Origin: Candidatus Omnitrophota bacterium
Lineage (GTDB): Bacteria > Omnitrophota > Gorgyraeia > Zapsychrales > Fredricksoniimonadaceae
NCBI GenBank assembly: GCA_903944345.1
Contig: CAJARJ010000011.1
Span: forward strand, 3,460-67,459
Length of the DNA stretch: 64,000 nt
Direction of reading: 5' to 3'
Positions 1 through 37,982 of this stretch are shown one piece after another. The notes below the pieces were generated by a model. The model did not search any database and was not told the DNA's origin. It saw only the letters and a list, made by a program, of their open reading frames with translations. The first letter of the stretch is position 1, and every line of letters starts with the position of its first letter. A program made the translations under genes and the position numbers.

Positions 1-726
1 GTCCGGGTTCAAATCAATTCCCTTAACCAGGGAACGATCAGCATAAGCCGCAGACAACAAGGCACCTCGCAGAGCACGTTTGTACCAGGCCGCCAGAACC
101 ATTCCGCTGTATATCTGTCTCAGCCCGGCAAAATGCTCTGAACGATTCACTTCTTCGGTTATAACCGGAACCAGCACACTGCCCGCAGGCGATGCGGCCG
201 CGCTCATCGCTTTCAGACGCTGTTCCAGCAGATAAACGGTATTATCTTTTTCATAAAGTACGGCGCGTTCGGGCAGTATCCAGATTTTGCTAAGCATTTC
301 TGCCGACGTAGCCGTTTGCCAGAATGTCTGTCCGGTTACGGTGTCTGGATCCGTCAGGACAGACGCGGACTGTTTGAGAACCATGTCTTGCGCCAGAAGA
401 TCTCTGCCCATAAGGGTATGGCCGAAATTGGGGGCCGTTAACCGACCAGGTTCATCAGGAGAAAGGTTAACCCACTGGTCTTCATCGGGCACGGCCAAAG
501 CGGCCAGGAAATATTTGACCAGGCGCAAATATTCTTGCTGACGTTCACCCGGAGCAAGATTCTCGTTACCACGATCAATCAGGAACTCCAGGCTGAAAGG
601 ATTGCGTGGGTCAACCGTAAGCCCAGCCAGAACCGGTGACTGGGCATGCCCGTTTACCGGTATAACGACAATAAAAAGAAAAAATAAGTAGAATAAGTAG
701 TGACACACAGAATTGTTTCTTAACAT
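1..726 (-). CDS. Paralog A of the secreted multi-domain protein family (5' part only; the gene runs off the left edge). Signal peptide plus the shared N-terminal module.
   Basis: Manual minus-strand translation from the ATG at 726-724: MLRNNSVCHYLFYLFFLFIVVIPVNGHAQSP... It is open to position 1 (242 codons), which is why it is not in the ORF track. It aligns with the N-termini of the 2814-, 936- and 1384-aa proteins (WVNLSP, GRDLLAQD.VLKQ, KIWILPERAVLYEK, EEVNRSEHFAGLRQIYSGMVLAAWYK). Confidence 0.6.
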   Translation of the reverse strand, partial: MLRNNSVCHYLFYLFFLFIVVIPVNGHAQSPVLAGLTVDPRNPFSLEFLIDRGNENLAPGERQQEYLRLVKYFLAALAVPDEDQWVNLSPDEPGRLTAPNFGHTLMGRDLLAQDMVLKQSASVLTDPDTVTGQTFWQTATSAEMLSKIWILPERAVLYEKDNTVYLLEQRLKAMSAAASPAGSVLVPVITEEVNRSEHFAGLRQIYSGMVLAAWYKRALRGALLSAAYADRSLVKGIDLNPD

Positions 727-728
727 AT

Positions 729-745
729 TGTGACATTATATCACA
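729..745. promoter_or_regulatory. TGTGA-N7-TCACA palindrome (tgtgacattatatcaca) immediately upstream of the paralog A start codon. On the minus strand it reads GTGATATAATGTCACA and contains a TATAAT -10-like hexamer.
   Basis: Seen directly in the sequence. A Crp/Fnr-like inverted repeat, but with a 7-bp spacer rather than 6. Confidence 0.3.
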
Positions 746-787
746 TTGTAATAAAATGTTAAAGGACTGCACAAAACAATTCTGTAT

Positions 788-813
788 GTCACGAATTATA
801 GTCACGAATTATA
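788..813. repeat. Tandem direct repeat, 2 x 13 bp (gtcacgaattata), lying between the stop of the giant gene and the 18-bp motif copy at 775-792.
   Basis: Seen directly: gtcacgaattata gtcacgaattata. Confidence 0.7.
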
Positions 814-9258: not shown

Positions 9259-9282
9259 AAGGAAAGTTTAGACTATATGCGC

Positions 9283-9348
9283 ATAGAATGCCAAAAAGGC
9301 ATTAAACATACTGGGAACACAGAACCATTCCTTAACATATAGCGACAT
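9283..9348 (-). pseudogene. Remnant mini-ORF MLRNGSVFPVCLMPFWHSMRI* upstream of the giant gene, inside a duplicated 5' module. It is homologous to the start region of paralog A (MLRNNSVCHY...).
   Basis: Region 9335-9365 (cttaacatatagcgacattttatagc) is homologous to 719-745 (cttaacatattgtgacattatatcac). The equivalent ATG is followed by a stop after 21 codons. Confidence 0.4.
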
Positions 9349-9386
9349 TTTATAGCAATGCCACTAAACGTTAGAAAATGTCACGA

Positions 9387-9434
9387 AACAATTCTGTGTG
9401 TCACCGATTACCTAATTCTGTGTGTCACCGATTA
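9387..9434. repeat. Two copies of the 18-bp motif AACAATTCTGTGTGTCAC, arranged as a 2 x 21-bp tandem direct repeat (aattctgtgtgtcaccgatta, 3-bp spacer cct) upstream of the giant gene.
   Basis: Seen directly. The same 18-mer is at 775-792 (one G-to-A change) and inverted at 700-717. A partial copy (cagaattgt) is at 14407-14415. Confidence 0.7.
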
Positions 9435-10460
9435 ACGAACTCTCTCTCCAATAAACTCAAAATAAGGAGAAAGCACATCCTCTTCAGGAAAAACCTCGGG
9501 AGCAATCCGAAAAAAAAGTTTTTTGAAATCCTCCAAATGATAATCCAGTATCGTCAAATCCGTATCATAACGACTGGAACGCACCTGATTGTGCATGCAA
9601 AAAAAATAACGAGCGCTTGAGAAAACCCGTGAACGAAAATAATATTCAAACCACTCCCGGGACATCTCCCCCAACGAAGAAATTCCGCTGAAAACATCAA
9701 CTGACCCTGTTTGCAGCCGCTCATAAAGAAACGGCGGCAACAGAATAAAATCATGCGCCAGAATAAAATCACGATCAATTGACTCCAGCGCTGCTATCGT
9801 CTGATAGGAAGCAATCTTCGCCTCCGGAAAATGTGTTTGCAAGTAATAATGCGCCAGCGCCAAAGGCTCGGGAAAGTCCAGCAACACCTGAGAACAACAA
9901 GGATTATCTCTTTTTATCAAGGCAGAGAAATATCCATAATTCCCTCCAACATCCATCAAGGTAAAATTCTCCTCCAGCCCTGGCAAAACATAATGCCGGA
10001 ATAGCAGCAAAAAATAGACCCGAATCAGCCATTTCTTTGTAAATGTATACCCGTTATAGAAAAACAATATCGGGCCTCCCACATCATCACAGGGATAGTC
10101 ACGCAAAAGATCAAGAACACCAACTCCTCCAAGACAGACCTCTTTGCAAGCCTTGTAAAGAAGCAAAAGCTCCTTGCGCTCCTGCGGCAATATTTTATCT
10201 GCATTACGAGATCCCAACGGATTATGCCGGGAAGGGATATCCGCAATAAATATCTCCAGATTGCGAAAATTTCTTACTGCCTCACGATTCAAAGTCCCGT
10301 CAGGAGAAACAAATTTATCTGCCCGGGGATAAACCTGGGCCTCCGATGTCCCACCAAGATAAAGTTCCGGCTGCGAGCAAAGAAATTCTTTTTGCATACG
10401 CAAATCCTGCTCAATAAGGCCAAACAGGAATTGCTCTCTGTTCGACAAAACCATACCCAT
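9432..10460 (-). CDS. Class I SAM-dependent methyltransferase (FkbM / sugar O-methyltransferase-like).
   Basis: Glycine-rich SAM motif LMDVGGNYGYFSALI. 342 aa. Embedded in the paralog array. Confidence 0.55.
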   Translation of the reverse strand: MGMVLSNREQFLFGLIEQDLRMQKEFLCSQPELYLGGTSEAQVYPRADKFVSPDGTLNREAVRNFRNLEIFIADIPSRHNPLGSRNADKILPQERKELLLLYKACKEVCLGGVGVLDLLRDYPCDDVGGPILFFYNGYTFTKKWLIRVYFLLLFRHYVLPGLEENFTLMDVGGNYGYFSALIKRDNPCCSQVLLDFPEPLALAHYYLQTHFPEAKIASYQTIAALESIDRDFILAHDFILLPPFLYERLQTGSVDVFSGISSLGEMSREWFEYYFRSRVFSSARYFFCMHNQVRSSRYDTDLTILDYHLEDFKKLFFRIAPEVFPEEDVLSPYFEFIGERVR

Positions 10461-10495
10461 CCTTTCCAGAAGTTATGACAAATTGGGATCCCAAA

Positions 10496-11437
10496 TCAAC
10501 GCCGCATCAGTCTTATTAACCAGAATAAAAACGGCCCGTAGCACAAAAGACAACCGATAAAAAGAAAAGGGGCAAAAGGAACACGAGACTTGATTTCCTT
10601 CATATGCTCGCTCAGTTCATTGACAATTTGTGAGAAAATGGTCAATGGAATCATGCGCAGCAAAAACCTTCCCGCAGCATCCGCCGAAAATATTGTATAC
10701 GAACTAAAGAACTGGAACAAAAGTCCCCCAAGGGCAAAAGTATAAACAAAACATTTAAAAAGCTTTCCGGAAGGATTCAGGGCAAATACCCCGCGATAAA
10801 TAAAGAAGATAATACAAATAACCAAAGGATTCCCCGAAGGTATCCTGAAGAAACCAAAAAGAGGGAAAATGGCCCATGAGATGACGGTTGTTATTTCAAA
10901 CGAATAAATCAGATTTTGTACTGTTTTTAACGAACACACCGCCCTGAAAATATCACGAAAATGAGAAACAACCCCGTCAAAAATCATCGGGAAAAGGAAA
11001 ACCATGCCCGCCAGGAATGTATTAATAAAATGCGCCAGACAAGGAAGCGGCGCTGACCTCTCATAAATATGGGAAGGCATAAGAAGGGCATACACCATAA
11101 AAAGCTTGGCATCCCCCGGTCTCCAGATATTGTTAACAAAAAGCAGAAAGGCCCCCAGCGCCGCTGCCGCAACATTTACAAGAAGAGGCACAGGCTCAAT
11201 GATATGCGCCATAACAGCCCAGACATGCAGAAAAATCCCGGCCAGGGAAGCAACAATAAGGTGAATATTCCTGATCTTGCGTTCCCGGATATCCGTAAAA
11301 GAAGTCATAGCCCCGGTTACAACAAGCAAAACCCAAAGAAGGGCCAAATAAATCCCGTATGGAGCTATTGTCATGAAAAGACCCTGGAAGATTATTTCAA
11401 ACCTACGTGCAACTGTTGAACTATATTGTCCGGCCAC
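10496..11437 (-). CDS. Polytopic membrane protein with an A24-family aspartic peptidase signature (prepilin peptidase / CpaA-TadV-like) and an extra C-terminal ~4-TM extension.
   Basis: TSFTDIRERKIRN after TM1 matches D-x-R-x-R-x-I-P-N (P replaced by R). WRPGDAKLF matches the GGGDVKL second-aspartate motif. About 8 predicted TM helices. No pilin or flp gene nearby. Confidence 0.45.
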   Translation of the reverse strand: MAGQYSSTVARRFEIIFQGLFMTIAPYGIYLALLWVLLVVTGAMTSFTDIRERKIRNIHLIVASLAGIFLHVWAVMAHIIEPVPLLVNVAAAALGAFLLFVNNIWRPGDAKLFMVYALLMPSHIYERSAPLPCLAHFINTFLAGMVFLFPMIFDGVVSHFRDIFRAVCSLKTVQNLIYSFEITTVISWAIFPLFGFFRIPSGNPLVICIIFFIYRGVFALNPSGKLFKCFVYTFALGGLLFQFFSSYTIFSADAAGRFLLRMIPLTIFSQIVNELSEHMKEIKSRVPFAPFLFIGCLLCYGPFLFWLIRLMRR

Positions 11438-11529
11438 AGGATGATCCGGAGTTCTATAAAAAATGAACGCGCGACAGGTCTATCATAATGCATCCTGTAC
11501 GCGCGTTCAATTATTCACTTGCCTAAAAA

Positions 11530-14274
11530 TCAGCGAAGAATACCGCTCTCCAACGGACGAATAAACTCGATTCGAACCTTCAAACCTTCCAGCCTGATTC
11601 CGGAGAAGTCCTGCTCTGACACCGGAAGAGGAATGCCTTCTCCATCACGCTGGATCTGCATATCAAGATGTTTCTGGGCCAGATCGATACCACCAACCTC
11701 ATCACTTCGGACAGGGATTGCAGATGCATCGGCGGCTGCCGCAGCAAACTCATTACGATAAGCCTCAACCCTGGCAATAACCCCATCAAGTTCATCAGCA
11801 CTCTCAATATCTCCTGCCGGAATATCAAAGTCGATCCACTGGGTGCGAGGAATATGTACCCCCAGATACAAACGCTCAGCATCAAGTCTCATGGTAAGAT
11901 CTGACGCTTGCTTACGGGCCAAGGCGAGAAAATCATCCATTAACTTTATTCGGGCTTCTCTAAGGGTACCGTCCAACAGGCGCGCCACGCCACCCCAACC
12001 CAAATCAGTCAACCGGGACAACGCAGGATTAAACAAAGTAACATCCATCAGCTTGCGATTCCGGTAACCGGACTGTGTCACGGCAATCTTGACAAATGTC
12101 ATCCCGCTATAAACTTCAACATCAAAAGCCGTCGCTTTGTAAGGGACAAGCGCAGGGAAAAATGCTTTTAAAAGCGACATCGTCACCCTTTGATCCGGAA
12201 CTATCCTGCCCTCGATGGAAAGCCGCTCCTGTCTGGTGATCTGGCTTGGCCAAACAAAAGTTTTTTCCTGCACAGCCTTAGAGGCAATCTTCTGACGGAA
12301 AGATTCGTCCGCAAGCAACTGATTAAGGTCTTGAACCAGATCTCCTGATTCGACAGGAGTAACATCCAGCTCTGTTTTCAAAACCTCCAGAAGCTCTGTC
12401 GGAGACATTCCTGCTTGCTGAAAGTCTTCCCACTGAAAAAGCGCCAATTCAGGATATATAACATTCTCCAAATGGAACATCTTGCGCCCCGGCGCAAGCA
12501 TCATCTCCTGATCAGCAGAAATAACCCCCGTCAAAGACTGAAGGATTTCCGGTTTCTCCATGGCAGCAACGCTGATTTCTGTCCTCTGGACAGAAGAATC
12601 CCCCTCGGCCAGCAGCTCTAACCCTCTGGTATGCTGCTCCAGCATTGCGAGCAAAGACTGCGGAGTCACCTCAGCACCCGCAGGAAAACGCACATCAAAG
12701 GCATTCCCGTCCTGCGGAACAACCCGAAGAACAGGAATATTGCTCTGCATTTCGATGGTATAGCGAACAGACCTGTCGTTATCCTTAAGCTGTTGCAACA
12801 ACGCCGCAAGCCTGTCAGTCTGCAGACGCAATACCATGGCACGCAAAAAACTGACCGTATCCGACCAGTTGGCTTTGGCGAGTTCCAGAAACCGGGACTG
12901 ATCAACGCCAAACAGTGTTACTTGCATAAGAGCATCGGAGTCCTTATCGGAGACAACAACCTTCAAATACGGCATCGCTCCTCCGCTACTGATACTTACA
13001 TTATAAATATCCCTGCCTTTGTTTATCTGATATGCAACCATATTTGTGCCGGCATAAGACTTGCGAACCGGATCCTTGCCGGAAAGAACTCCCATAACCC
13101 GGAATAAATCAAGATTATAAATCTGGTTCTCCCGTAACGAAATGCTGAATTGCGCATCATCCACAGCGGAAACCAGTGAAACACGCATATCTTCCAGGCC
13201 AGAAACCTGGGCTTCGTCTGCGGACGAAAGCGCAGAAACGCGCTTGGCCGAATCGATGGCCGCTGTTGCATTGGTCATACCCCCCGAGAAATACTTGCGG
13301 GGAACCGGCTGGGCACCATAACTATCCACATCATCCCGGATCACGTTGTAGGCCCCGGCACGAAACGCCTCCAGATATTTCTGATAAATTTCTTCATTAA
13401 CCCGGGGATCCTGGCGAATTCCGGCCAGTCTTGATTTATCGCCGTAAAGCGACGTCAGTATGCTTTCCCTGAGAGCCTGTTTGTACCATGCCGCCAGGAG
13501 CATCCCGCTGTAAACCTGTCTTAACACCGCAAAATCCTTGCCTTCATTTACTTCCTGTTCAAGCACAGGCAGAATCACTTCCCGCATAACCTCACGGCTT
13601 AACTGTGTCAATTCCGTGTTTGCCGGCTCAAGGACATCCCGGCCCTGTGCGGCAAGGTAATCTGATTCCAGCTGAACCTTCAGCCGGGATTCAAGCACAT
13701 ACACGGCACTGCCCTTCTCATACAACTTTACCGAGTCGGGCGTAATCCACACCCGGTTGAACACATCGGTCGGGATATCCGTTATGGCATACTGGCGGTA
13801 AGCCCGCTCGTAAATTTTTTCCCAGAATTTTTTACCCAGCTCGGTGGAAGGATTACTTAAAGAAGAAGCCGCCTGCTTGAGCAGGTAATCCTGTACCAGC
13901 AAATCACGCCCCATCTCGGTCTGACCAAAGTTGTCGGCAATAATGCGGTCTTTTTCGAAAGGAGAAAGGTTCACCCACTGATCCGTGTCGGGCACTGTGA
14001 CCGAAGCCAGAAAATATCTGATCAAACGGCTGTATTGCTCCTGTTTTTGCGCATCATCCAGGCTAACATCTCCGCTTTGAACAATAAAATCCAGTTTGAA
14101 GGGATCTTTGGCATCAATAACAATCCCTTTAAGAACCGCAGGGCGATCCGTCGGAATGATCATGCCGGGCGAAACAGCAGGCGTTCCTGTCAGCTGAGCA
14201 AAAGCCGCGGAAGGAAGAAAAGTTGTGGAAACAAAACATAACAAAACAAAACAGGCAACAATACGTCGTAACAT
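11530..14274 (-). CDS. Secreted protein (about 915 aa from the MLRRIV start), paralog C: signal peptide, shared N-terminal module, unique middle, shared C-terminal tag.
   Basis: ORF 11530-14340. The likely start at 14274 (MLRRIVACFVLLCFVSTTFLPSAAFAQ) is preceded by AAAAGGAC. N-terminal module is about 65% identical to the giant protein. C-terminal VGGIDLAQKHL...GLKVRIEFIRP. Confidence 0.75.
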   Translation of the reverse strand: MLRRIVACFVLLCFVSTTFLPSAAFAQLTGTPAVSPGMIIPTDRPAVLKGIVIDAKDPFKLDFIVQSGDVSLDDAQKQEQYSRLIRYFLASVTVPDTDQWVNLSPFEKDRIIADNFGQTEMGRDLLVQDYLLKQAASSLSNPSTELGKKFWEKIYERAYRQYAITDIPTDVFNRVWITPDSVKLYEKGSAVYVLESRLKVQLESDYLAAQGRDVLEPANTELTQLSREVMREVILPVLEQEVNEGKDFAVLRQVYSGMLLAAWYKQALRESILTSLYGDKSRLAGIRQDPRVNEEIYQKYLEAFRAGAYNVIRDDVDSYGAQPVPRKYFSGGMTNATAAIDSAKRVSALSSADEAQVSGLEDMRVSLVSAVDDAQFSISLRENQIYNLDLFRVMGVLSGKDPVRKSYAGTNMVAYQINKGRDIYNVSISSGGAMPYLKVVVSDKDSDALMQVTLFGVDQSRFLELAKANWSDTVSFLRAMVLRLQTDRLAALLQQLKDNDRSVRYTIEMQSNIPVLRVVPQDGNAFDVRFPAGAEVTPQSLLAMLEQHTRGLELLAEGDSSVQRTEISVAAMEKPEILQSLTGVISADQEMMLAPGRKMFHLENVIYPELALFQWEDFQQAGMSPTELLEVLKTELDVTPVESGDLVQDLNQLLADESFRQKIASKAVQEKTFVWPSQITRQERLSIEGRIVPDQRVTMSLLKAFFPALVPYKATAFDVEVYSGMTFVKIAVTQSGYRNRKLMDVTLFNPALSRLTDLGWGGVARLLDGTLREARIKLMDDFLALARKQASDLTMRLDAERLYLGVHIPRTQWIDFDIPAGDIESADELDGVIARVEAYRNEFAAAAADASAIPVRSDEVGGIDLAQKHLDMQIQRDGEGIPLPVSEQDFSGIRLEGLKVRIEFIRPLESGILR

Positions 14275-14487
14275 GAACAGTCCTTTTCTTACAGAGTAAA
14301 ATCCGCCCCTCGCGTGTCGGGCCCGGACCGGATTAAACAACCAGGACAGAGAAGCCGATAAAGACTCTCTGCTATTCTATAATTTATTTGATTCGAAAGA
14401 TTCTAGCAGAATTGTCATAAAAAGTCAATTATGGCAATAAATGCAAGTTTTTGCAAAAACACTGGTCAACGATGCTGCAGGTAAGGG

Positions 14488-17400
14488 TTAGTTTGGAGTC
14501 AAGCCCAAAACAACTGAAAGCCGCGCGACCGGAGTCACTTCAAGAATGACGGGAGAAAGCCCATAAAAATCGCCCCGGAAGGCGCTCTGCAAAGCATCAA
14601 AACTGAAGGAAACCCGGCCTGGGTTGCGCTGACCGGACAGGACGATATCCTTGATGTCAATACCGCCAACAGGCTCCTGCGCCTGGTCTACCCCGTCGGG
14701 AATAGCCTGAACAATGCCTCCCGGAAGAATACCGTATTCCATAAGAACACGGAACACTTCCGAAACACTCCAGGCCTGGGAAGGCGTCCCGCCCGCAGAA
14801 CGCTGGCCATTTTCCCTAGGTTCGGCATCATAAACTTCCGCAATCGACCCTGTTGCCAGGAAATCCCGCACCAGCGGATCAAGCACCGCCGAGATTTCTC
14901 TTTTTATATCTTCATCCGGCCTGTTTTGCGCGCGCAAAACCTTGGCCAAAGCATCAACATACCCACCAATAAGCCATGGCCAAACCGTCCCCTGATGATA
15001 CGCATAATCTTTATGCCAATGGAAATCAGGATGTCCGGGAGAAGGCTGAAAAGATGTGTCATAACGCGGCCTGTAATGGGAATCCCTGGGGTCCAGCGTA
15101 CGCAGCCCCTTGTCGGTAAGAAGCCTTCGAGTCACCGCATCCACGACCTGCTTTTGTCTTTCAAAAGAAAGCAAATCCTCACCATGACTGACCGCAAAAA
15201 TCATGTTGGGCCGCACGGCGCCACCATGTGAATCCCCCTCGATCACATCAAAAAGTAAATTCTCAGGCTCATCAACATCTGCAGAAACCGGACGATCATT
15301 CCAGAACTTCTTGTTAAAACTGCTCTTGACCTTGAGCAACAAAGCCTGCAGCCTTGAGGCTTCAACCTCAACATCTTCGATATTCATCGAAACTTTCATT
15401 TGCTCGGTCAATTGCCCGCCCACCTCCGAGAGAAGACGCACCAGATACCTGAGATTCGCATACCACAAAGCATTGATCTCGACAGCTTTTCCATTGCGCG
15501 GCGTGACCGGCCCCTGTGCATTCGGATCGGCATCCATCCAGGTGGCCTGTGATGGGCTAGAAATCAGGGCATCCGAGGGATCCATGTAAATGCGGTTATA
15601 ATTATTTGCAGGAAAAGCGTTAATATGTTTGGAACGGTCATATCCGACGCCTTTTTCGTAGGCCGTCAGAATAGCACGGACAACCGGAAACATTTCCAGG
15701 GCAAAAGCCTGATCCCCGGAGTATTCAACGTACTTTTTGACCGCCTGGATAAACCACATCGGGCCGTCAACAGTATTGTACTCGTTCCACTCCGGATGAC
15801 GGGAATCTGGAATACGGTTGGGGATCAGTCCGTCTTTCATGAATGAAGCAAAACTGCGAATGACCGCGCGCGCTTCTTCAAAACGCCCGGTTGCAAGCAG
15901 AATACCTGGCAAGGAAATGAAGGTATCCCTCCCCCACTGCTCCAGAAACCATTCACTGGGACGCCCCGCAGCCCATATCTCGACAACAGGCTTCCCATTG
16001 CGCTCGACGTGCTGGACAAAGGAGTCGGCGGTCATGGCCAGGACACCCCGAAGCGCCGCACGCACCTCGACTGAAGCCCCTTCCAGGCTGAAATACCCCC
16101 CCCGATGCAAATCAGGCAGAAGTTCATGCAAACGAAACAAATCCGAAGCCTTGAACCTTGTCCGCGAAAAATAATCCTGATCACCGGGCAAAGGAATACG
16201 GTAACGCCAGGTGGAGTGACCATCAGCTTCTTTTTTGAGCGGCTGCTTATCTCCGTGAATATCTCCCATGGCCAGCGCAAGAAAAGACGAACGGCCCGCA
16301 GTCAGGCTGTCCAGTTCACGCTTGGCAGTCTGAACCTTGCGAATAAACGCCACCGAATTTGCATGATAGTTACGCGGATCATCGTGAGTCGATATACGTT
16401 TGTAAAGACCGTCCATTGGCACAATGCCATGACGTTGTATATCATAAAATGTATTGTTGAAGGCCTCGGCAACAACAAAGGCCTGACGGTCATTAAAGAT
16501 CTTTGCAACCGCAGCCACAAGGGCGTCACCGGGTTCAGCCTCAAGATTATCCTGTCCGATATTATAAGCAAAATGCAAAGCATCAATCCTGGCGCCGTCG
16601 AAACCGAAGTCCAGCCAGAATTGCATCGGATCGGTGATCAACCTGAATTTGTCTTCTTTAAGTTTATCCCAATTCCACAACGCCAGATCACCCCATACCA
16701 CCGGAAGGAAAGACAAGCCCGGGCTTAACCCCTCCTCAAGCCCGCGAAAATATTCCGGAGAGGCTGTAATATCAACACTGTCTTTTCCGCGAAAGAACGG
16801 AATATCAAACAACAGCTTGCCGCCCTCGGCATGAACCTGATCAACTGCTTTCCTGAACTGACGAAAGGCAATCCACTGCCGGAAAAGATGCTGCTGGATA
16901 TTCGACTGCCTGTCACCCGACTCTCTTTCAGCTTTCCAGCGGGCAAAGGTTTGCAGCTTCACCGACAGATTCGGATCCGTTTGAGTCTTCTCCAAAAAAT
17001 CTTTGGCAAGCGAAGTATCCTTACCCAGATGCCTGGACGAAAAAAGCCTCCAGACCTGCAAGGACAAAGCGGCATTACGCTCCCGGACAGAAGGAAAATC
17101 GATCTCGGCAGAAGTCCCGGCAGGAGCTTCAAGGAGATCTTTGACGGAAGCAAGAATAGCCTGTGCATCCTGATCATCCTCGGACATTTCCCGTATAAAA
17201 AGTTCCCAGTCAACCAGATCTTCGTTTAGCGCATATAGATATTCGGGAGCATACGGACTTTCGTGACGAATAGAATAAAACGGCATCAGCTGCATTACAG
17301 AAACACCCTGCGGTATGGCGGTCTCACGATAATATAAGGGAATATCCGAGAATTTGCCAATTCCCGGATCGCCCTGTTGGCGACGCAAAGCCGAAACAGC

Positions 17401-18606
17401 CACTTCTTCAACAATATACTGCCTGTTTTCCTGCTTCCACCAGACAGGCGCTTCGGCTTTGGCAGACTGCGCAGGACTCGCCGCCCAGTCCACGGCAAAC
17501 ACCTGACCTTGTTCTGTTTGAGAAATTTGCGCAGCATCCGCACGCGTTACAGGGATCTGTCCAAACTGCATCCCACCGGCGAAATACTTCCTGGGAATAA
17601 CTTCTCCATCAGGCCCCGGTTCTTCCCGGATGAAATCAAAGATACCTTTTTTATACGCCTGGATATAACGCTGATAAATATCTTCCTTGACCCCCGGCTC
17701 CGGTGCAGTAACCCCCGCCACCTTGTTTTGTCCGGCGTATTTCCGGGCAACAAGGGTTTCCCGGATCTGCTCACGGTACCATTTGCCCAGGATAGCCGCA
17801 TGATAAATCTGCCTGGTCACGGCAAAATTTTTTCCTTCATTGACCTCTTTTTCGATAACCGGAAGGATCACAGAACGCATAATATCCCGAACCAGGGCTT
17901 CGTTAACATTCTCCTGCTGCTGATCGACATTCCCGGCAGAAGCGGTGCGGTCACGGTCAAGCATGACCTTGAGCCGGGCGCCGGTCACATAAACAAGATT
18001 ATCTTTTTCGTAAATTTCGGCCCGATCCGGCATGATCCATATCTTGTTAAAAACATCTACCGGGATATCAGTTGTTCCAAAACGGCTATGCGCCACAGAG
18101 TAGATTTCTTTCCAGAAAGACTTGCCCAGCCCCTTGTCGGGATACACCAGCGAAGCCGCCAGCTGTTTGAGCACATAATCCTGCGCCAGCATATCGCGGC
18201 CAAGAACAGTTTCACCCAGCTGTCCTTCGACAATCCGGTCTTTTTCAAACGGCGAGAGGTTAACCCACAACTGGTTTTCAGGAACGGTAACAACCGCCAA
18301 GAAATACCTGGCCATGCGCTGGCTTTGCTCTGCGATTTCCCCGCGGGCGGGAATTCCATTTCCCGAATCAACAATAAAACGAAAATCCAGCGGACGAGCG
18401 GGATCGACTATAAGCCCTCTGACTAAAGGAGGAACATAACTTTCGGAAACCGCCAGCATATCCCCCGGGCCAGGAAGGGCAGCAATAAAGCCCCCCTGCG
18501 TCCAGGCAACGGAAGAGTCAAATATGAAAAAAAGAAGAGTTACAGCAGCAACAGATTTCTTAAAAAACAGGCGCGGAGAGAATGAAAGTAGAAAAGAATC
18601 AAGCAT
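14488..18606 (-). CDS. Secreted 4-alpha-glucanotransferase (GH77-like) plus amylo-alpha-1,6-glucosidase (GDE C-terminal domain) fusion, preceded by the shared N-terminal module and ending in the shared C-terminal tag. Paralog D (about 1372 aa).
   Basis: ORF 14488-18642; probable start at the second ATG (18606, MLDSFLL...). Signal peptide KKSVAAVTLLFFIFDSSVAWTQ. GH77-like motifs ESPYAPEYLYALN, LLFDIPFFRGKDSVD, FDGARIDALHF. GDE motifs HQGTVWPWLIGGYVDA and GDSHGGAVRPNMIFAVSHG. C-terminal VGGIDIKD...GLSPVILEVTP. Confidence 0.75.
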   Translation of the reverse strand: MLDSFLLSFSPRLFFKKSVAAVTLLFFIFDSSVAWTQGGFIAALPGPGDMLAVSESYVPPLVRGLIVDPARPLDFRFIVDSGNGIPARGEIAEQSQRMARYFLAVVTVPENQLWVNLSPFEKDRIVEGQLGETVLGRDMLAQDYVLKQLAASLVYPDKGLGKSFWKEIYSVAHSRFGTTDIPVDVFNKIWIMPDRAEIYEKDNLVYVTGARLKVMLDRDRTASAGNVDQQQENVNEALVRDIMRSVILPVIEKEVNEGKNFAVTRQIYHAAILGKWYREQIRETLVARKYAGQNKVAGVTAPEPGVKEDIYQRYIQAYKKGIFDFIREEPGPDGEVIPRKYFAGGMQFGQIPVTRADAAQISQTEQGQVFAVDWAASPAQSAKAEAPVWWKQENRQYIVEEVAVSALRRQQGDPGIGKFSDIPLYYRETAIPQGVSVMQLMPFYSIRHESPYAPEYLYALNEDLVDWELFIREMSEDDQDAQAILASVKDLLEAPAGTSAEIDFPSVRERNAALSLQVWRLFSSRHLGKDTSLAKDFLEKTQTDPNLSVKLQTFARWKAERESGDRQSNIQQHLFRQWIAFRQFRKAVDQVHAEGGKLLFDIPFFRGKDSVDITASPEYFRGLEEGLSPGLSFLPVVWGDLALWNWDKLKEDKFRLITDPMQFWLDFGFDGARIDALHFAYNIGQDNLEAEPGDALVAAVAKIFNDRQAFVVAEAFNNTFYDIQRHGIVPMDGLYKRISTHDDPRNYHANSVAFIRKVQTAKRELDSLTAGRSSFLALAMGDIHGDKQPLKKEADGHSTWRYRIPLPGDQDYFSRTRFKASDLFRLHELLPDLHRGGYFSLEGASVEVRAALRGVLAMTADSFVQHVERNGKPVVEIWAAGRPSEWFLEQWGRDTFISLPGILLATGRFEEARAVIRSFASFMKDGLIPNRIPDSRHPEWNEYNTVDGPMWFIQAVKKYVEYSGDQAFALEMFPVVRAILTAYEKGVGYDRSKHINAFPANNYNRIYMDPSDALISSPSQATWMDADPNAQGPVTPRNGKAVEINALWYANLRYLVRLLSEVGGQLTEQMKVSMNIEDVEVEASRLQALLLKVKSSFNKKFWNDRPVSADVDEPENLLFDVIEGDSHGGAVRPNMIFAVSHGEDLLSFERQKQVVDAVTRRLLTDKGLRTLDPRDSHYRPRYDTSFQPSPGHPDFHWHKDYAYHQGTVWPWLIGGYVDALAKVLRAQNRPDEDIKREISAVLDPLVRDFLATGSIAEVYDAEPRENGQRSAGGTPSQAWSVSEVFRVLMEYGILPGGIVQAIPDGVDQAQEPVGGIDIKDIVLSGQRNPGRVSFSFDALQSAFRGDFYGLSPVILEVTPVARLSVVLGLTPN

Positions 18607-18731
18607 GTGTTTATTCTTTCGTTCTTTATCATCGTTTGGCATAATTAATTATTATATTGCAGTTAGAGTCATTTACATGCTTGCAATACAATACCTGACA
18701 CAAAAAAAAAGTCAAGCGCCTGCCACCTCAT

Positions 18732-19415
18732 TTATTCATTCGCAGGGACCTCCGTTTCTGCAGGCTCTCCAAAAGTGAAACTTTGATTATAAGAATGTGC
18801 CTCTCCTTCAGGGTTGCTATTGGTGACCTCCCGAGAAACAGTATCGCCCTCTTTGGCAACCTCGGAATGCTGAGTCCAGGTATTTCCGTCCTGTCCGGTC
18901 AGCGTGCGATCGGCAACAATCTCTCCGTTCTGATGACTGACTGTCGAACTGACGGTCGAGCTCTTGCCGCTCTCATCGGTATAAACCGCCTGGACATCCC
19001 GGCTGCCATCTTCATTTTTGCTTACCGTGCGGCTGACATCTGCTGTCTTACCCTTGCTTCCAGTGACAGCCCCCTGCTGGGACAATGAACCATCTTCATT
19101 TCTTGAAAACGTTCCTTCGGAAGAAACCGTCCTGCCGCCGGCACCTGTTGCCCTGGAAGAATACGTTCCTGTTTTTGTTTCCTTGTTCCAGCTCCGGCTG
19201 GATTCACTACTGCCTTCGCCACGCTCATTCTGCCAAGTCGTTGTTTTTGCAGAACTCCCTTTGTTTCTGCTGACATTCTTTTCAACTGTTCCACTGCCAC
19301 GACGACCACTGTAAGTGCCCGAGGCCGAGCGTTCCCGGGCAAAAGTTAGCGGCGCAGGAAAAGTCAAACACAATACCAGCAAAACTGTCGCTCCCCATCT
19401 TACGGAATTCTTCAT
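18732..19415 (-). CDS. Secreted low-complexity Ser/Thr/Gly-rich protein (about 228 aa) with degenerate TVS(K/R)NEDGS repeats.
   Basis: Signal peptide MKNSVRWGATVLLVLCLTFPAPLTFA from the internal start at 19415, with an AAGGGGA RBS. The rest is compositionally biased. Confidence 0.5.
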   Translation of the reverse strand: MKNSVRWGATVLLVLCLTFPAPLTFARERSASGTYSGRRGSGTVEKNVSRNKGSSAKTTTWQNERGEGSSESSRSWNKETKTGTYSSRATGAGGRTVSSEGTFSRNEDGSLSQQGAVTGSKGKTADVSRTVSKNEDGSRDVQAVYTDESGKSSTVSSTVSHQNGEIVADRTLTGQDGNTWTQHSEVAKEGDTVSREVTNSNPEGEAHSYNQSFTFGEPAETEVPANE

Positions 19416-19431
19416 TTTGTCCCCTTGTAAT

Positions 19432-19827
19432 TTATTGTCCAAGCGCTTTACGAAACTGTTCGCAGGTTTTCTGATACTGCCGGCTGTTGGGCTTAAGCTC
19501 TGCGGCAAGACAAATTTCTTTGAGACCTTCACGGTCTGTCTGACGGGTACGCTTGAGCAGCTTGAACTGAGCCAGACCGTAATACATGTGATACGCCGGC
19601 CTGGTTGGTTCGAGGATGATGGCCCGGCGCAAGGCATCAATATCCCCGGTCAGTCGATATTCGTGATAGGCATAACGCGAAGAAAAAGGATTAAGGCGCT
19701 GCGCCTGACGGATCAGCTGAACGTCACCCTTGGCCATGCTTTGACGAAACAAATGCTCGGCTGTACCGAAAAAAATCAGCAACCCCAGAAAAATCAGACT
19801 GACCACAATGGTCACGATTTTTATCAT
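19432..19827 (-). CDS. Small membrane-anchored protein of unknown function (N-terminal TM helix, TPR-like helical remainder).
   Basis: ORF with an N-terminal hydrophobic segment MIKIVTIVVSLIFLGLLIFF. Confidence 0.45.
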   Translation of the reverse strand: MIKIVTIVVSLIFLGLLIFFGTAEHLFRQSMAKGDVQLIRQAQRLNPFSSRYAYHEYRLTGDIDALRRAIILEPTRPAYHMYYGLAQFKLLKRTRQTDREGLKEICLAAELKPNSRQYQKTCEQFRKALGQ

Positions 19828-21536: not shown

Positions 21537-23813
21537 TTATACCAGAGGCTTGCCGGAATCGCAACCAAAGCGCGTATAAACATAAGAGACTCCCAGAAAC
21601 AAGATCCCCAGAGCCATCAGGGTAATAATTTTGAAAAGCAGATCCAGGCCGGAAAGGTCGACAAAAACAACCCGGCCCAGCGTCAACGCAAGCAAAACCA
21701 TGCCCCCCATTCGCTCGGTCTTGCTACCGGAAAAAAGACCCGCCAGCAAAAGAACAACACTGGCAAAACCAAGTCCCAACGAACCCCACTGCCGGGGCAA
21801 ATACTGATGAATAGCCACAACAAGCAAAACAAGGCCCGACGCCAAAGCCAGCCCTGCCTCATGCCAGAAAAACAGCTCCGCCGTACGCAGCCGGGCAGTC
21901 CAGCGGACAGTATAATAAAAAATAAAAAACGGCAACACATTAACCATCACAACGAGACTGCGCAAAAAAGGATTAACAATATAAATCGAATCAAGAACAA
22001 ACAGCGTTCCCGCAACAGCCAGAAGCGCTGCCGCATACACCCGAAACCGCCTTAGACCCAAACCCAGGCTCAGTGCAAGAAAAACAAGCCCCTGTACGGA
22101 CAAGGACAAAGCAATCCACGGCTGCTTAACCAGCGGCCACAAGGCAAATACAAAATGCCAACACGCTGCGAACGAAAAGAAATGATCAAAAAGACGGTCA
22201 AGCTGCCCGGCCTTGCCCTCTTTCTTCAGATACCGGGTCAAACAAAATGATACCCCTGCCGATATCCCCGCCCATATAGACATAAAACTGTACCAAGGCC
22301 ACCAGAACCCAAGAAAGTTAAACGACATGGGTGTTTCAAAAAAGCATAACCTTAACGCAACAGCCACCGCCAAAACATACCCCATAACACGGTAAAGACG
22401 CTCGTTCTGCGTTCGAGCGACAAAAATAAGAAAAGGAATCTCGATGATCCAGACAATCATTCCGGTCACCGGGGTAAATTTCAATGCTGCCGTGACCGTA
22501 AGGGCAAAAACACCGCAAATCAGATCGGCAAGATAAAGTTTTTCCCGACCCAGCTTCTTCATCATTCCGGCACAGACCAGATAAACGACACCAACAACAC
22601 CCACCAACACATAACGCTGGCTGAAAAACAGCCGCATGATCAAAGGATACGCCAAGACCCCATAAAGACCGGCATTCCACAAATTCGTCGCGGCTAATTT
22701 CTTAACCTGTTGATCATCGACCTCTCTGACCAGATGCGTCCCGACCAAAAAAACAAGCCAGTAACAAGAAAGAAAGACCAGGCTGACAAGATCAGGATAC
22801 AGCGACTGTTCAGCCATTCGCAGAAAACCACTGCCGAACGCGGGGTCCAACCCTGGCATAAGCCATAAGTAATGGGCGGTATAGGTAAGTAAAATGCCCA
22901 AAGACAGTATTTCAACCCAGCGGAACCTGTAAACAAAAAACAACACCAGTCCCGCCAGGAGAAGAAGACTGATAACCGTAAAACCGCTTACCTCACCGAT
23001 ACCAAGGGTCAAATACGCCACACAAAGCACCACCGACACCAGCACCTGCGATTTATGCCGCAGCACATGCAGCATCATACCGCTGACCACCAGCGCCAGC
23101 AGGAGAAGATCAATCCCCTGGCTGGCAATGATCCGGGACGCTTCAAAGTGATGCATCGCGTAAGTGGTAAAATAGACCAACCCCCACGCTCCACCGAGAA
23201 GAACCCGTCCGTAATTTCTGAATTGATCCTTTTGTTCCAGACGAAAGCCGGTAAAGAAAAGAACTCCGGCAACAGCATAACCGGACAAAATCTTCAGAAT
23301 CGGGCCGATATATGCAAACGAATAGGTGATCAGAAAAGCGACTCCAAGAACAAGTGCCGAGATACCGATCTTGTTCAGCCAGTTTCGCGCGAAGTCCATC
23401 TCCATATCCGTTTGCGGTCGAGGTAAAGCGGCTGATGCGAATTGCGGCCCGGGCTCAAGCTCAGGCTCAGGCTCCGGGTCTGGTCTGGACGGCAACTGCA
23501 CCTCACTAATTACTGGCGCAGGCTGGGCCGGCGAAAGCCCCGCAATAAACTCTTCCAGCTTTCCGGTCTTCTTCTCGAGTAAAGACAAGGAAACCTTCAC
23601 CTCCCGAAGCTGACGCCTGGCCTCATCCAAAGAAGATACGCTCTGTTCCGGAAGACAGGAATGACTGCCCGTGGAAGGAAGTAAAAGAAGAAGAATGACC
23701 GTCAGAGGACCTGTCAGCAAAGCCAGAAAAAAGAAGCCGCCAATGGAACGCTTTTTCTGATCAGCCAGATAAATCGACACTAAAAGAGATACAACCCATA
23801 TCCATATCAACAT
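21537..23813 (-). CDS. Large polytopic membrane protein (758 aa, DUF2339-like): N-terminal TM helix, coiled-coil, Pro/Glu-rich linker, then about 14 or more TM helices.
   Basis: Linker PDPEPEPELEPGP followed by many hydrophobic helices. Family assignment is from memory only. Confidence 0.5.
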   Translation of the reverse strand: MLIWIWVVSLLVSIYLADQKKRSIGGFFFLALLTGPLTVILLLLLPSTGSHSCLPEQSVSSLDEARRQLREVKVSLSLLEKKTGKLEEFIAGLSPAQPAPVISEVQLPSRPDPEPEPELEPGPQFASAALPRPQTDMEMDFARNWLNKIGISALVLGVAFLITYSFAYIGPILKILSGYAVAGVLFFTGFRLEQKDQFRNYGRVLLGGAWGLVYFTTYAMHHFEASRIIASQGIDLLLLALVVSGMMLHVLRHKSQVLVSVVLCVAYLTLGIGEVSGFTVISLLLLAGLVLFFVYRFRWVEILSLGILLTYTAHYLWLMPGLDPAFGSGFLRMAEQSLYPDLVSLVFLSCYWLVFLVGTHLVREVDDQQVKKLAATNLWNAGLYGVLAYPLIMRLFFSQRYVLVGVVGVVYLVCAGMMKKLGREKLYLADLICGVFALTVTAALKFTPVTGMIVWIIEIPFLIFVARTQNERLYRVMGYVLAVAVALRLCFFETPMSFNFLGFWWPWYSFMSIWAGISAGVSFCLTRYLKKEGKAGQLDRLFDHFFSFAACWHFVFALWPLVKQPWIALSLSVQGLVFLALSLGLGLRRFRVYAAALLAVAGTLFVLDSIYIVNPFLRSLVVMVNVLPFFIFYYTVRWTARLRTAELFFWHEAGLALASGLVLLVVAIHQYLPRQWGSLGLGFASVVLLLAGLFSGSKTERMGGMVLLALTLGRVVFVDLSGLDLLFKIITLMALGILFLGVSYVYTRFGCDSGKPLV

Positions 23814-26800: not shown

Positions 26801-27226
26801 TCCCCTGGACAGTTCCTCTTCGGTCAGCATTTCCGGCAAAGCACCGAATTTGGCAGGGCTAAACAACGCACTGTCCACCATAAAAAGAAACAACACTCCG
26901 CAGAGGAACCACAAATGCCCCGTCCACAGCGCCCAGGCAGATAACAATGCCAAAAACACCTTGAGCGTCCCCATAAGAATAATCACCGAGCGTTTAGGAA
27001 ACCGGTCAGCCAGATACCCGGCTAAAGGGGCCAGCAGCATAAAAGGCAGGATATACAAAACACCGACAATACTGACTGCCCGCGCGGCGCCATCGGGCGA
27101 AAGCAAAACCTGGACAGCATATAAAGAAACCACCACTTTCAGCAGACTATCCGTGAGTGCCCCCGCAAACTGGGCCGCCAGCAAACCGCGAAAAGATAAC
27201 GACGTGCAATCCTTTTGCATAAACAT
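23807..27226 (-). CDS. aas: Trifunctional fusion: MFS lysophospholipid transporter (LplT-like), PlsC-type 2-acyl-GPE acyltransferase, and acyl-ACP synthetase (Aas).
   Basis: N-terminal MFS helices. Acyltransferase motifs NHISYVDAIL (HX4D) and FPEGRLT. AMP-binding motif SSGSTGEPKGV at the C-terminus. Confidence 0.8.
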   Translation of the reverse strand: MFMQKDCTSLSFRGLLAAQFAGALTDSLLKVVVSLYAVQVLLSPDGAARAVSIVGVLYILPFMLLAPLAGYLADRFPKRSVIILMGTLKVFLALLSAWALWTGHLWFLCGVLFLFMVDSALFSPAKFGALPEMLTEEELSRGNGYIQLCTFLGIILGTALGGVLFRFFNDRLYFIGLLMSLLAVGGLWASFAIRCEKQPADQRSPGFFSGTWSAWKGIRADRGLFLSMLALAFFNFLGAAFQMNILVYGAHVLAVDQLHISILLVAVSLGIAAGSVLAGAASEGKVELGLVPLGGAGITLMSFLLGFGGNFYPALLKLFILGLCAGFYTVPLNAFFQRWSPARERGQYLSVLNIFSSGASLVAGVFLWYVAGQLAVGADRIFWIVGALSACASLYIVVILPVALVRLVNWLLAHSVYKLRVLNSSHVPDEGGALLICNHISYVDAILILAALKRPVRFIMYRKMYDLPLVNFFCRVLKVIPIDRAEGPKSLIRALGEARKAIESGELVCIFPEGRLTRTGNMLPFSKGFEHIMKGLSAPVVPLYLDNIWGSIYTFAKGRYFWKWPRLTLYPVSVVFGKPLPAASRVHEVRLAVQELGAEASILRGAWRKKLHLAFIDEVKRHPLRMCMTDSTGLKLGYPGAFAAAAAVSKALFPAGRRPMETNEMVGVLLPSSCMAAVSNIAVAFAGKVPVNLNFTLSGEAFDSCIRQCNMRTIITSRAFLQKTGIPAREQMVYLEDLAAQCAPIRSVWYFLAALILPGRLLSALFVRGDKLNVDDTATVIFSSGSTGEPKGVLLTHANIFSNIEGFYQVFNIRKDDVVVAALPFFHSFGFTATMCFPLGTAVGVVYHTNPLDAGTIGRLTEKLKGTILMGTPTFLSAYLKKCTREQFSSVRMAVVGAEKLKQPLADAFREKFGVTPFEGYGATELSPIVTVGFPDYASEDDMERQTGYKFGKVGHPIPGVAVKVVDPDTFELKGVDEEGLLLVKGANVMKGYLNNPAKTAEVVRDGWYLTGDIAIIDADGFIRITDRLSRFSKIGGEMVPHIKVEENIMEILGVVDTVLAVTSVPDEKKGERLIVLHSVDLDAEAVCESLRARGMPNLWIPAKSAFFRVEGIPFLGTGKIDLKRVKVMAIELAKEGVC

Positions 27227-31436: not shown

Positions 31437-31576
31437 TCCTCCTTTGATTATCTTTAATAAACGTCAAACAAAGTTAACTTGCTTTTACTGCACCCCCTTT
31501 CAGAGGCGGGACACCGATCATATGCTGTATAATTCCATTTTGCTTTGCGGCGTCCTGCCTTCCTTTGGCTCCTGAA

Positions 31577-32889: not shown

Positions 32890-32894
32890 ATGAT

Positions 32895-33290: not shown

Positions 33291-33306
33291 ATTCCCCTCA
33301 ATCCCG

Positions 33307-34362: not shown

Positions 34363-34364
34363 GC

Positions 34365-37924: not shown

Positions 37925-37982
37925 TTCAAGACTACACTGCCAGCTGGCAGCTTGTCAAGGCGACAGGTGTATTTCTTTAATG

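Follow-up and report, generated by a model that had tools for sequence, protein, structure and literature searches.

The eukaryotic glycogen debranching enzyme (GDE) carries a transferase domain of glycoside hydrolase family 13 (GH13; PMC4837477). The GDE catalytic pair has experimental support, as D1241/E1492 in the Candida glabrata enzyme (CgGDE) and D1261/E1502 in the human one (hsGDE), and D1078 of CgGDE coordinates the leaving glucose (PMC4837477; PMC12219210). Archaeal enzymes of family GH133 are proposed to act in indirect debranching together with a separate 4-alpha-glucanotransferase (PMC11046441). Glycogen enzymes are also found outside a bacterial cell: Chlamydia trachomatis secretes GlgA, GlgB, GlgX, GlgP, MalQ and MrsA, a phosphoglucomutase among them, with synthesis and breakdown of glycogen in the inclusion lumen (PMC6717882), and Chlamydia and Omnitrophota are both reported to be related to the PVC group (PMC6717882; PMC10407285). 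The subject here is protein D, encoded on a stretch of 64,000 nucleotides from a Candidatus Omnitrophota bacterium (assembly GCA_903944345.1, contig CAJARJ010000011.1, positions 3,460 to 67,459), called the window in what follows.

Protein D joins five parts in one chain: a predicted Sec-type signal peptide, an N-terminal module (N-module), a GH77-like domain, a GH133 domain and a C-terminal module (C-module). The identity of the domains, together with the export of the protein, can be held with considerable confidence; its substrate and role are proposed with less. On balance, D is probably a Sec-exported, bifunctional debranching enzyme mounted on a carrier, the N/C frame, and would degrade external or prey glycogen- or starch-like glucan for uptake.

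Gene and domain order

D is the product of the minus-strand open reading frame (ORF) at 14488-18606 of the window, and its residues are counted here from the first ATG, at 18642. From that ATG the frame runs uninterrupted over 1384 codons (14488..18642, minus strand). The likely true start is M13, with the ATG at 18604-18606, as orthologues begin at the equivalent of M13; this agrees with the start at 18606 given in a first-pass annotation that a model had made of the window. No clear Shine-Dalgarno sequence was found before either candidate ATG, and a sigma-70-like site lies upstream of the gene at 18715-18688. Antisense to the N-module coding region is a frame of 349 codons (17377-18426, plus strand), almost certainly a shadow ORF of the conserved minus-strand gene. 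An identical protein (P0001) and the nearest relatives come from metagenome-assembled genomes labelled Omnitrophota (formerly OP3).

The order of the parts (Table 1) emerges from profile matches and N-terminal features, and upholds the fusion that the first-pass annotation had proposed, i.e. a signal peptide and N-module followed by a GH77-like transferase and a GH133 glucosidase. The three motifs it had singled out are all present, SPY at residues 462-464, FDGARIDALHF at 681-691 and GTVWPWLIGG at 1218-1227. The first ~400 residues find no match in Pfam or NCBIfam. The N-module contained in them had been described as common to neighbouring paralogues, and BLASTP indeed gives 42-44% identity over ~340-375 residues to the two complete paralogous ORFs of the window. 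Because the N-module hidden Markov model (HMM) matches D with an E-value of 1.7e-156, chance is not a plausible source of this shared module.

Table 1. Features of protein D, of its paralogues in the window and of the Streptomyces homologues (positions refer to the window, except in the last row, where they refer to the loci named)
Feature	Position	Strand	Remarks
Predicted Sec signal peptide of D	18499..18606	minus	aa 13-48; n-region R + KK, h-region SVAAVTLLFFIF, c-region DSSVAW/TQ
N-module of D	17449..18498	minus	aa 49-398; alpha/beta domain of ~350 aa; HMM E 1.7e-156
GH77-like 4-alpha-glucanotransferase domain of D	16027..17448	minus	aa 399-872; Pfam GH77 E 1.2e-16, partial
GH133 amylo-alpha-1,6-glucosidase domain of D (GDE_C)	14743..16026	minus	aa 873-1300; Pfam GDE_C E 6e-94
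C-module of D	14491..14679	minus	aa 1322-1384, GGIDIKDIVLSGQRNPGRVSFSFDALQSAFRGDFYGLSPVILEVTPVARLSVVLGLTPN; HMM E 8e-20; stop codon 14488-14490
D687, candidate nucleophile (ARID)	16582-16584	minus	motif equivalence
E726, candidate acid/base (VVAEAF)	16465-16467	minus	aligned to the Glu of Thermus LAEDLG in the PDB profile search
D754, candidate transition-state Asp (THDD, with H753)	16381-16383	minus	motif equivalence
D906 (WGRD)	15925-15927	minus	aligned to CgGDE D1078
D1037 (TWMD)	15532-15534	minus	aligned to CgGDE D1241 / hsGDE D1261
E1269 (IAEVYD)	14836-14838	minus	aligned to hsGDE E1502, equivalent of CgGDE E1492
Neighbouring frame paralogue, 936 aa	11530..14340	minus	N-module E 3.5e-137; C-module E 8e-11
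Frame paralogue, 2814 aa	814..9258	minus	N-module E 2.4e-150; C-module E 4e-14
Fourth N-module gene, only its 5' part inside the window	1..735	minus	N-module HMM E 1.4e-66
Streptomyces megaplasmid proteins with the N-module core	L085 6855-9176; L086 6972-9353; L087 1705-4155; L088 1702-3981		

The catalytic cassette

The C-terminal catalytic domain of D is, by its profile match, clearly a GH133 member. Pfam GDE_C (PF06202) matches residues 874-1298 over the whole profile (positions 5-367 of 367), and D906, D1037 and E1269 fall on residues with known roles in the fungal and human enzymes. Models of complete debranching enzymes fit far less well. The model of the eukaryotic type (TIGR01531) reaches 135.5 bits, with a cut-off of 1399.55, and matches only the C-terminal domain; that of the archaeal type (TIGR01561) reaches 184.5 bits, with a cut-off of 364.15, at profile positions 281-567 only. 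Pfam finds no GDE_N domain in D. The first-pass description of D as eukaryote-like therefore stands as an analogy of layout and fails as a statement of family membership, the transferase being GH77-like rather than GH13 and TIGR01531 lying far below its cut-off.

Pfam Glyco_hydro_77 (PF02446) matches residues 415-687 of the transferase domain at 61.1 bits, with a cut-off of 25. A profile built from five sequences of this domain and compared with the PDB places Thermus amylomaltases at the top (E 5e-13); GH13 chains appear only at E>=2.5e-4, and there is no GDE chain among the 60 best matches listed (E<=0.07). Pfam Alpha-amylase has no match on D, and two NCBIfam models, malQ and PRK14508, stay well short of their cut-offs. 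D687, E726 and D754 are candidates for the equivalents of the catalytic set D293/E340/D395 of Thermus amylomaltase; D687 and D754 were assigned by motif, the HMMER alignment being shifted or ending there. These are accompanied by R685, H690, H753 and the Tyr of the SPY motif, Y464. The His at position 690, two residues after the Ala688 that follows the nucleophile, resembles GH13 conserved region II.

Residues Y464, R685, D687, H690, E726, H753, D754, D906, D1037 and E1269 are invariant in 30 orthologues (41-55% identity, two phyla), so that the catalytic Asp and Glu residues on which the first-pass proposal depended are present in both domains. The transferase domain is best called GH77-like, a divergent relative of GH77 from which transferase activity may be expected. 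This label was chosen because the second half of the profile stays unaligned and because the nucleophile motif reads RIDALH, both of which are consistent across the subfamily.

The N/C frame

The catalytic cassette of D lies within what was defined in this analysis as the N/C frame, which consists of a signal peptide, an N-module of ~350 residues and a C-module of ~60 residues around a variable cargo. Both modules are found in D by their HMMs, at residues 54-398 and 1325-1384, with the E-values of Table 1. The C-module of D, with GGIDIKD...PVILEVTPV...LGL, had been overlooked in the first-pass annotation; the consensus of the module is GGID-x3-I-x-V...G...I-x-F...GF-x-GF-x-PVIINITP-x-x-S...LLG. 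It stands at the end of most of the 120 best N-module homologues and is common to all three complete paralogues of the window. In D it has no hydrophobic stretch of transmembrane length and no basic tail, and it does not follow a sorting-signal pattern (LPXTG/sortase or PEP-CTERM). A C-module profile picked up nothing but short fragments at contig ends, and neither module has a match in Pfam, NCBIfam, PHROGs or PADLOC.

How widespread is the frame? A profile search with the N-module among 1.84 billion representatives yields 8296 clusters (50% identity) at E<=1e-3, with 6721 of them at E<=1e-30, and in every one the module begins at residue ~25-50. Species-representative genomes hold at least 594 N-module stretches, several per genome, and nearly all of these carry the label Omnitrophota or one that is plainly wrong. 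Modelled by AlphaFold2 with good overall confidence (pTM 0.81, mean pLDDT 77), the N-module has an alpha/beta fold that combines long helices and a pair of beta-hairpins.

The cargo varies widely and consists mainly of cytoplasmic-type enzymes. Represented are hexokinase, class I aldolase-TIM-GAPDH, adenylate kinase, nucleoside diphosphate kinase (NDK) with histidine phosphatase, UDPGP, GT5 starch-synthase-like, GT1/TreT-like and PPDK-like domains, glutamate dehydrogenase, LpxC, NUDIX, radical SAM and HEAT repeats. There is also a second debranching layout on the frame, in Omnitrophota proteins P0041 and P0045 (2036-2114 residues), where the N-module is followed by a GH77-like domain, extra domains, GDE_N, GDE_C and the C-module; and in P0234 a GH13 domain is added after the GH77-like/GDE_C cassette. 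From these layouts it follows that alpha-glucan enzymes were mounted on the frame more than once in Omnitrophota. The label 'glucan phosphorylase', given by JGI to frame protein P0058, was set aside, as Pfam shows only weak GT5/GT1 matches there.

In the window, four frame genes stand in a row on the minus strand (1-18606), all with a signal peptide and an N-module. Three frame genes are likewise adjacent at an orthologous locus (L080), and in 12 of 79 other loci the C-module ends just upstream of the next N-module. Adjacent frame genes, in the window as at L080, have only the N- and C-modules in common and differ in cargo. The cargo of the 2814- and 936-residue paralogues finds no match in Pfam, NCBIfam, PHROGs or PADLOC. 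A conserved functional pair of D and its 936-residue neighbour was considered and rejected, since the neighbours of the cassette in the two loci are alike only in the modules.

The core of the N-module is homologous to proteins encoded on Streptomyces megaplasmids (tblastn E 1e-28; hhalign 99.9%, E 9e-33). In these proteins, of ~760-816 residues, a signal peptide precedes an N-terminal half that is different in each of them; the module core comes next, and a linker connects it to an anchor at the C-terminus. Two of the four have LADTG with a hydrophobic stretch and RRRR as their anchor, the other two a C-terminal transmembrane segment with a basic tail. LAxTG is the motif recognised by Streptomyces class E sortases. 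Because a signal peptide is combined with either a sortase-type LADTG signal or a transmembrane anchor, the module core is predicted to be extracytoplasmic in this unrelated phylum. Two further resemblances did not hold. A GGIDF hairpin in the Streptomyces proteins, taken as a possible permuted C-module, was rejected at an hhalign probability of only 12.8%, and the idea that their variable heads are deaminase- or nuclease-like, from HSE...CxxC or D...EIK-like motifs seen by eye, gained no support from Pfam and PDB searches.

What, then, might the frame do? The first-pass annotation had suggested that the N-module binds a glycan or the envelope. Glycan specificity is at odds with the unrelated cargo: the module is not specific to the substrate of D, because it is also attached to hexokinase, adenylate kinase, NDK and aldolase-TIM-GAPDH. 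Association with the envelope is plausible in the light of the Streptomyces anchors. Retention or display of the cargo, within the cell envelope or at the surface, is the most likely function of the frame.

Predicted signal peptide and export

Evidence for the signal peptide is heuristic and comes from comparison of 209 family members, aligned on LPxPG, an invariant motif at the start of the N-module. The N-termini share 1-3 basic residues, a hydrophobic stretch of ~12-15 residues, a break with Pro, Ser or Gly and then (S/V/A)-Y-A↓Q-S, where the arrow marks the predicted cut. The YA↓Q site is of the classical signal peptidase I type and lies eight residues ahead of LPxPG. The longest uncharged N-terminal stretch has a median of 15 residues across the family, fewer than would be expected of a stable membrane anchor. 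Positive charge is greater on the N flank than on the C flank in 202 of 202 family members, and an N-in/C-out orientation is predicted from this bias.

The N-terminus of D, R..KK-SVAAVTLLFFIF-DSSVAWTQ, shows the n-, h- and c-regions expected of a Sec signal peptide. The cleavable signal peptide of the first-pass annotation is thus supported in its layout and by the family consensus, less so at the cleavage site of D itself, which is less canonical. The exported location that it had proposed is supported more broadly, by the family-wide signature with its charge bias and by independent signal peptides in Elusimicrobiota orthologues. Export of D is well supported by these comparisons. The case is the stronger because the Elusimicrobiota orthologues have signal peptides of their own and the Streptomyces homologues of the N-module core carry anchors.

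Possible substrate and role

The best indication of what D might act on comes from relatives of the cassette. A search with the cassette only (residues 399-1325) gives ~35 clusters, mainly from Elusimicrobiota, with 41-43% identity across 98% of the query. The Elusimicrobiota orthologues have no N-module; nearly all open with their own signal peptide (e.g. MKRTLSVLLSAIIALSGGPFAVAASAQVV), followed by an Ala/Pro-rich linker of 100-200 residues and then by the same SWWKD start of the catalytic region. At one Elusimicrobiota locus (L081) the cassette gene is accompanied by two GH13 genes, one for an amylase with signal peptide plus Ala/Pro linker and one whose product has Glucodextran_C but no signal peptide; a GH3 protein that bears a signal peptide and the parts of a sugar ABC importer (SBP_bac_1, two permeases and an ATPase) are encoded there as well. 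Another locus (L083) has the same two GH13 neighbours. This is the layout of external alpha-glucan utilisation, not of capsule synthesis. Because an exported GH13 enzyme and a sugar ABC importer stand beside the Elusimicrobiota cassette, scavenging of external or prey alpha-glucan is preferred over capsule remodelling as the role of D.

A separate observation on these loci is that in two of the three examined a protein of 1733-1828 residues with Peptidase_S8 and HEAT_2 domains directly precedes the GH77-like/GDE_C gene (L083 2320-7806 and L084 2803-8004). In passages of the preprint by West-Roberts et al. (10.1101/2023.11.21.568195), S8 peptidase domains are described near the N-termini of Omnitrophota giant proteins.

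If D is an exported scavenging enzyme, the following sequence of events may be envisaged. The signal peptide would take the chain across the inner membrane and be cut, as predicted, near VA↓W or AWT↓Q. The catalytic cassette, from residue 399 to ~1320, would be cargo inserted between the N- and C-modules of the Omnitrophota-wide frame, and the frame would retain or display it in the envelope or at the surface. By family membership, the GH77-like domain would transfer the maltooligosyl part of a short branch to another chain end, and the GH133 domain would hydrolyse the leftover alpha-1,6-linked glucose. This would be an 'indirect', two-step debranching as in the eukaryotic GDE, with a transferase of a different family. 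The products, linear maltodextrins and glucose, would be available for uptake.

Several observations weigh against this reading. The GH77 Pfam profile aligns with D only at positions 2-279 of 465, and with the orthologue P0234 at 1-279, i.e. over about its first 60%; the His after the nucleophile (RIDH in Thermus) is replaced by Ala688 in D (RIDALH), and by Ala in 30 of 30 orthologues. Because of these two features the transferase activity of D could be altered. The possible cleavage sites of D, SVA↓W or AWT↓Q, are less canonical than the (S/V/A)YA↓QS of the family. Neither a maltodextrin importer nor any other alpha-glucan gene is found in the window, and one of the three Elusimicrobiota loci examined (L084) has neither GH13 nor ABC neighbours. 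For the frame, a Foldseek search with the N-module model against the PDB and BFVD finds no significant fold match, and in an AlphaFold2 model of a complete frame protein (P0154, 585 residues, pTM 0.56) the C-module, and with it any docking between the N- and C-modules, is of low confidence. Finally, the cargo of many sister frame proteins consists of enzymes that depend on ATP, UTP or NAD. Such enzymes are hard to reconcile with an extracytoplasmic space free of nucleotides and would be out of place in a normal periplasm or in the cell's surroundings. Ways out of this nucleotide puzzle are delivery into a host or prey cell, an unusual extracytoplasmic compartment that contains nucleotides, or no export.

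The first of these leads to an alternative in which the N/C frame is a means of delivery that brings metabolic enzymes to the inside of host or prey cells, or to a space shared by host and parasite, where D would mobilise host glycogen. Hexokinase, adenylate kinase, NDK, GAPDH and UDPGP need a compartment with nucleotides, and such a compartment would be at hand there. Passages of one report describe ultra-small, host-dependent or predatory traits in Omnitrophota (PMC10066038), the secreted enzymes of Chlamydia offer a precedent, and frame genes resemble arrays of toxins or effectors in their tandem order and varied cargo. The best Foldseek matches of the N-module in the PDB, although non-significant, are nearly all components of the ClyA family of pore-forming toxins (MakA/B/E, NheA, SmhA/B), with E 0.05-0.2, probability <0.1 and TM-score ~0.1. 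Values of this order do not amount to evidence; a kinship of the N-module with ClyA-family alpha-pore-forming toxins was rejected as not significant and is kept as a lead only. The frame has no linked translocation machinery, Sec signals by themselves lead to the periplasm only, and the Elusimicrobiota orthologues fit plain nutrient scavenging. Delivery into other cells is therefore unlikely. In a wider form of the idea, the frame would be a phylum-wide cassette that puts much of sugar, nucleotide and energy metabolism outside the cell's own cytoplasm, in a host or prey cell or in a shared extracytoplasmic compartment, with D as its glycogen-mobilising member; this, too, is a tentative proposal with low odds.

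Could the substrate be the cell's own? The first-pass annotation had pictured an exported D that remodels an extracytoplasmic alpha-glucan of the organism itself (capsule, extracellular polysaccharide or periplasmic glucan), with the N-module binding the glycan or the envelope. The support for export serves this proposal equally, and frame proteins with GT5 starch-synthase-like, GT1/TreT-like and UDPGP domains could place a synthetic arm in the same compartment; passages of one preprint discuss giant GT5 proteins of Omnitrophota as possibly acting on branched glycopolymers (10.1101/2023.11.21.568195). However, no genes of glucan synthesis or export lie near D, nor anywhere in the 64-kb window, the frame-less orthologues occur in catabolic loci (two of three Elusimicrobiota loci beside GH13 amylases, one of these also beside the sugar ABC importer), and the N-module is found as well on enzymes that have nothing to do with glycans. 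Remodelling of a capsule or other polysaccharide is accordingly improbable.

It is quite unlikely, moreover, that D stays in the cell, with its hydrophobic N-terminus functionless or serving as an uncleaved anchor that tethers the enzyme to the inner face of the membrane, where it would debranch cytoplasmic glycogen. Indirect debranching (PMC11046441) and most of the sister cargo enzymes are classically cytoplasmic, and passages of a preprint on long proteins of Omnitrophota consider cytoplasmic enzymes anchored in the inner membrane (10.64898/2026.06.07.730766). However, the uncharged stretch, with its median of only 15 residues, is followed by a conserved AXA-type site, the N-in/C-out charge bias has no exception in the family, the frame-less orthologues combine classical signal peptides with Ala/Pro linkers of secreted type, and in Streptomyces the homologues of the module bear signals of the sortase type or for a C-terminal anchor.

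That one or both glycosidase domains have changed their job, the GH77-like domain perhaps becoming a hydrolase or a carbohydrate-binding scaffold, is very doubtful: the profile match that stops at 279 of 465 in D and P0234, the RIDALH motif in place of the Thermus RIDH and the lack of a characterised member of the GH77-like/GH133 subfamily in the literature searched would allow it, but the Asp/Glu/Asp set with its flanking Arg and His and the SPY Tyr is invariant in the 30 orthologues of two phyla, and the fusion with an intact GH133 domain is itself conserved.

Other features of the window

Between the frame genes, at 9432-11437 (minus strand), are genes for a putative sugar O-methyltransferase (TIGR04371, NanM-like, E 4.5e-27) and a membrane protein; neither is present at L080. 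The membrane protein (10496-11437, minus strand) has a marginal match to Peptidase_A24 (prepilin peptidase), with 28.1 bits and a cut-off of 26.5. Its candidacy as a dedicated processing enzyme is unsupported, as it is missing from L080.

Just upstream of D, an ORF at 18732-19640 (minus strand) has an internal Met, a signal-peptide-like segment MKNSVRWGATVLLVLCLTFPAPLTFA and a long, repeat-like region rich in Ser, Gly and Thr, with no Pfam match; its product may be a small secreted or surface protein.

Farther along, at 23807-27226 (minus strand), one ORF of 1139 residues joins major facilitator superfamily transporter, acyltransferase and AMP-binding domains. A complete chemotaxis cluster occupies 29421-42167 (minus strand), with a methyl-accepting chemotaxis protein, a CheD-receiver fusion, CheB, CheR and a CheA-CheW fusion, and is followed by a hybrid histidine kinase of 1394 residues with several PAS domains. 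GC skew is negative in all 2-kb bins of the window and almost all long ORFs are on the minus strand, as would fit a single replichore in which genes strongly favour one strand.

Comparison with known systems

As a kind of enzyme D is already known, in that databases label its orthologues '4-alpha-glucanotransferase' or 'glycogen debranching enzyme'. As far as the searched literature shows, the exported GH77-like/GH133 fusion subfamily, its place on the N/C frame and the frame itself appear to be new. Neither the frame nor its GH77-GH133 member is described in the passages on giant and long proteins of Omnitrophota that keywords retrieve from those papers, and a keyword look-up in other Omnitrophota papers retrieved no description of the frame. 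D would define an uncharacterised GH77-like/GH133 subfamily in Elusimicrobiota and Omnitrophota.

The eukaryotic debranching enzymes (AGL/GDE; C. glabrata, 5D06; human, 8ZEQ) resemble D in having, on one chain, an N-terminal 4-alpha-glucanotransferase followed by a GH133 (alpha/alpha)6 domain. Their chains are the best solved-structure matches to the C-terminal catalytic domain of D (E 1e-39 to 1e-40), and the equivalents of CgGDE D1078, D1241 and E1492 are kept. They are cytosolic, whereas D is bacterial and carries a predicted signal peptide and the N- and C-modules; its transferase domain is GH77-like, and its cassette has ~920 residues compared with ~1500. D would thus be an exported bacterial form of the two-step debranching that textbooks place in the eukaryotic cytosol, with a GH77-like transferase instead of GH13.

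Bacterial amylomaltase or MalQ (GH77; Thermus, 1CWY and 2OWC) is the best profile match to residues 399-872 of D and has the same SPY Tyr, R-x-D motif of the nucleophile, AE acid/base and HD transition-state motif. MalQ is a free cytoplasmic enzyme, whereas this domain of D is fused to GH133, is predicted to be exported, aligns with only the first 60% of the profile and has Ala in place of the post-nucleophile His. Archaeal-type enzymes (TIGR01561; PDB 7VMA; Sulfolobus GH133) share the GH133 catalytic domain with D; unlike D, they act on intracellular glycogen, and 7VMA matches D at E 9e-6 only.

The closest counterparts of the cassette are in Elusimicrobiota (P0224-P0249, annotated as 4-alpha-glucanotransferase or glycogen debranching enzyme). 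They are true cassette orthologues with the same invariant residues, are likewise predicted to be exported, and none has been characterised; they differ from D in having an Ala/Pro linker instead of the N- and C-modules. For the frame, the nearest parallel in construction is with the Streptomyces surface proteins (e.g. WP_121549542.1 and WP_251091514.1), annotated as hypothetical, which are also modular and join a variable domain to the conserved module core. Unlike in the frame, their module occupies the C-terminal half, ahead of a linker and an anchor, and there is no C-module of the Omnitrophota type.

Giant and long proteins of Omnitrophota (Archaeovorins and dockerin-type giants) are, in the passages of the preprints that concern them, similar to frame proteins in combining a signal peptide or transmembrane segment with GT5 starch synthase, PPDK_N, NUDIX, HEAT_2, HAD and radical SAM domains. 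Passages of a 2026 preprint on the long proteins report signal peptides or transmembrane segments together with starch synthase and phosphoglucomutase domains and leave the puzzle open (10.64898/2026.06.07.730766), and those of West-Roberts et al. describe the same domain repertoire in the giants, with N-terminal regions that hold no identifiable domains (10.1101/2023.11.21.568195). More remarkable than the glycosidase is its carrier, with more than 8,000 protein clusters that have the signal peptide, N-module and C-module in common. If frame proteins are truly exported, these ultra-small, host-dependent Omnitrophota would run core metabolism in a very unusual place, and the frame can serve as a searchable marker for how uncultured members of the phylum feed on or exploit other cells.

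The secreted GlgX, MalQ, GlgP, GlgA, GlgB and MrsA of Chlamydia trachomatis are like D in being normally cytoplasmic glycogen enzymes, with debranching and 4-alpha-glucanotransferase activities among them, that act outside the bacterium (PMC6717882). They differ in the means: in Chlamydia the enzymes are ordinary, separate proteins with type III secretion signals, whereas D is a chimera fused to a Sec signal and the N/C frame, with its export predicted. If metabolism outside the cytoplasm is what the frame brings about, Omnitrophota would parallel the secreted glycogen enzymes of Chlamydia by way of a dedicated, previously undescribed carrier domain.

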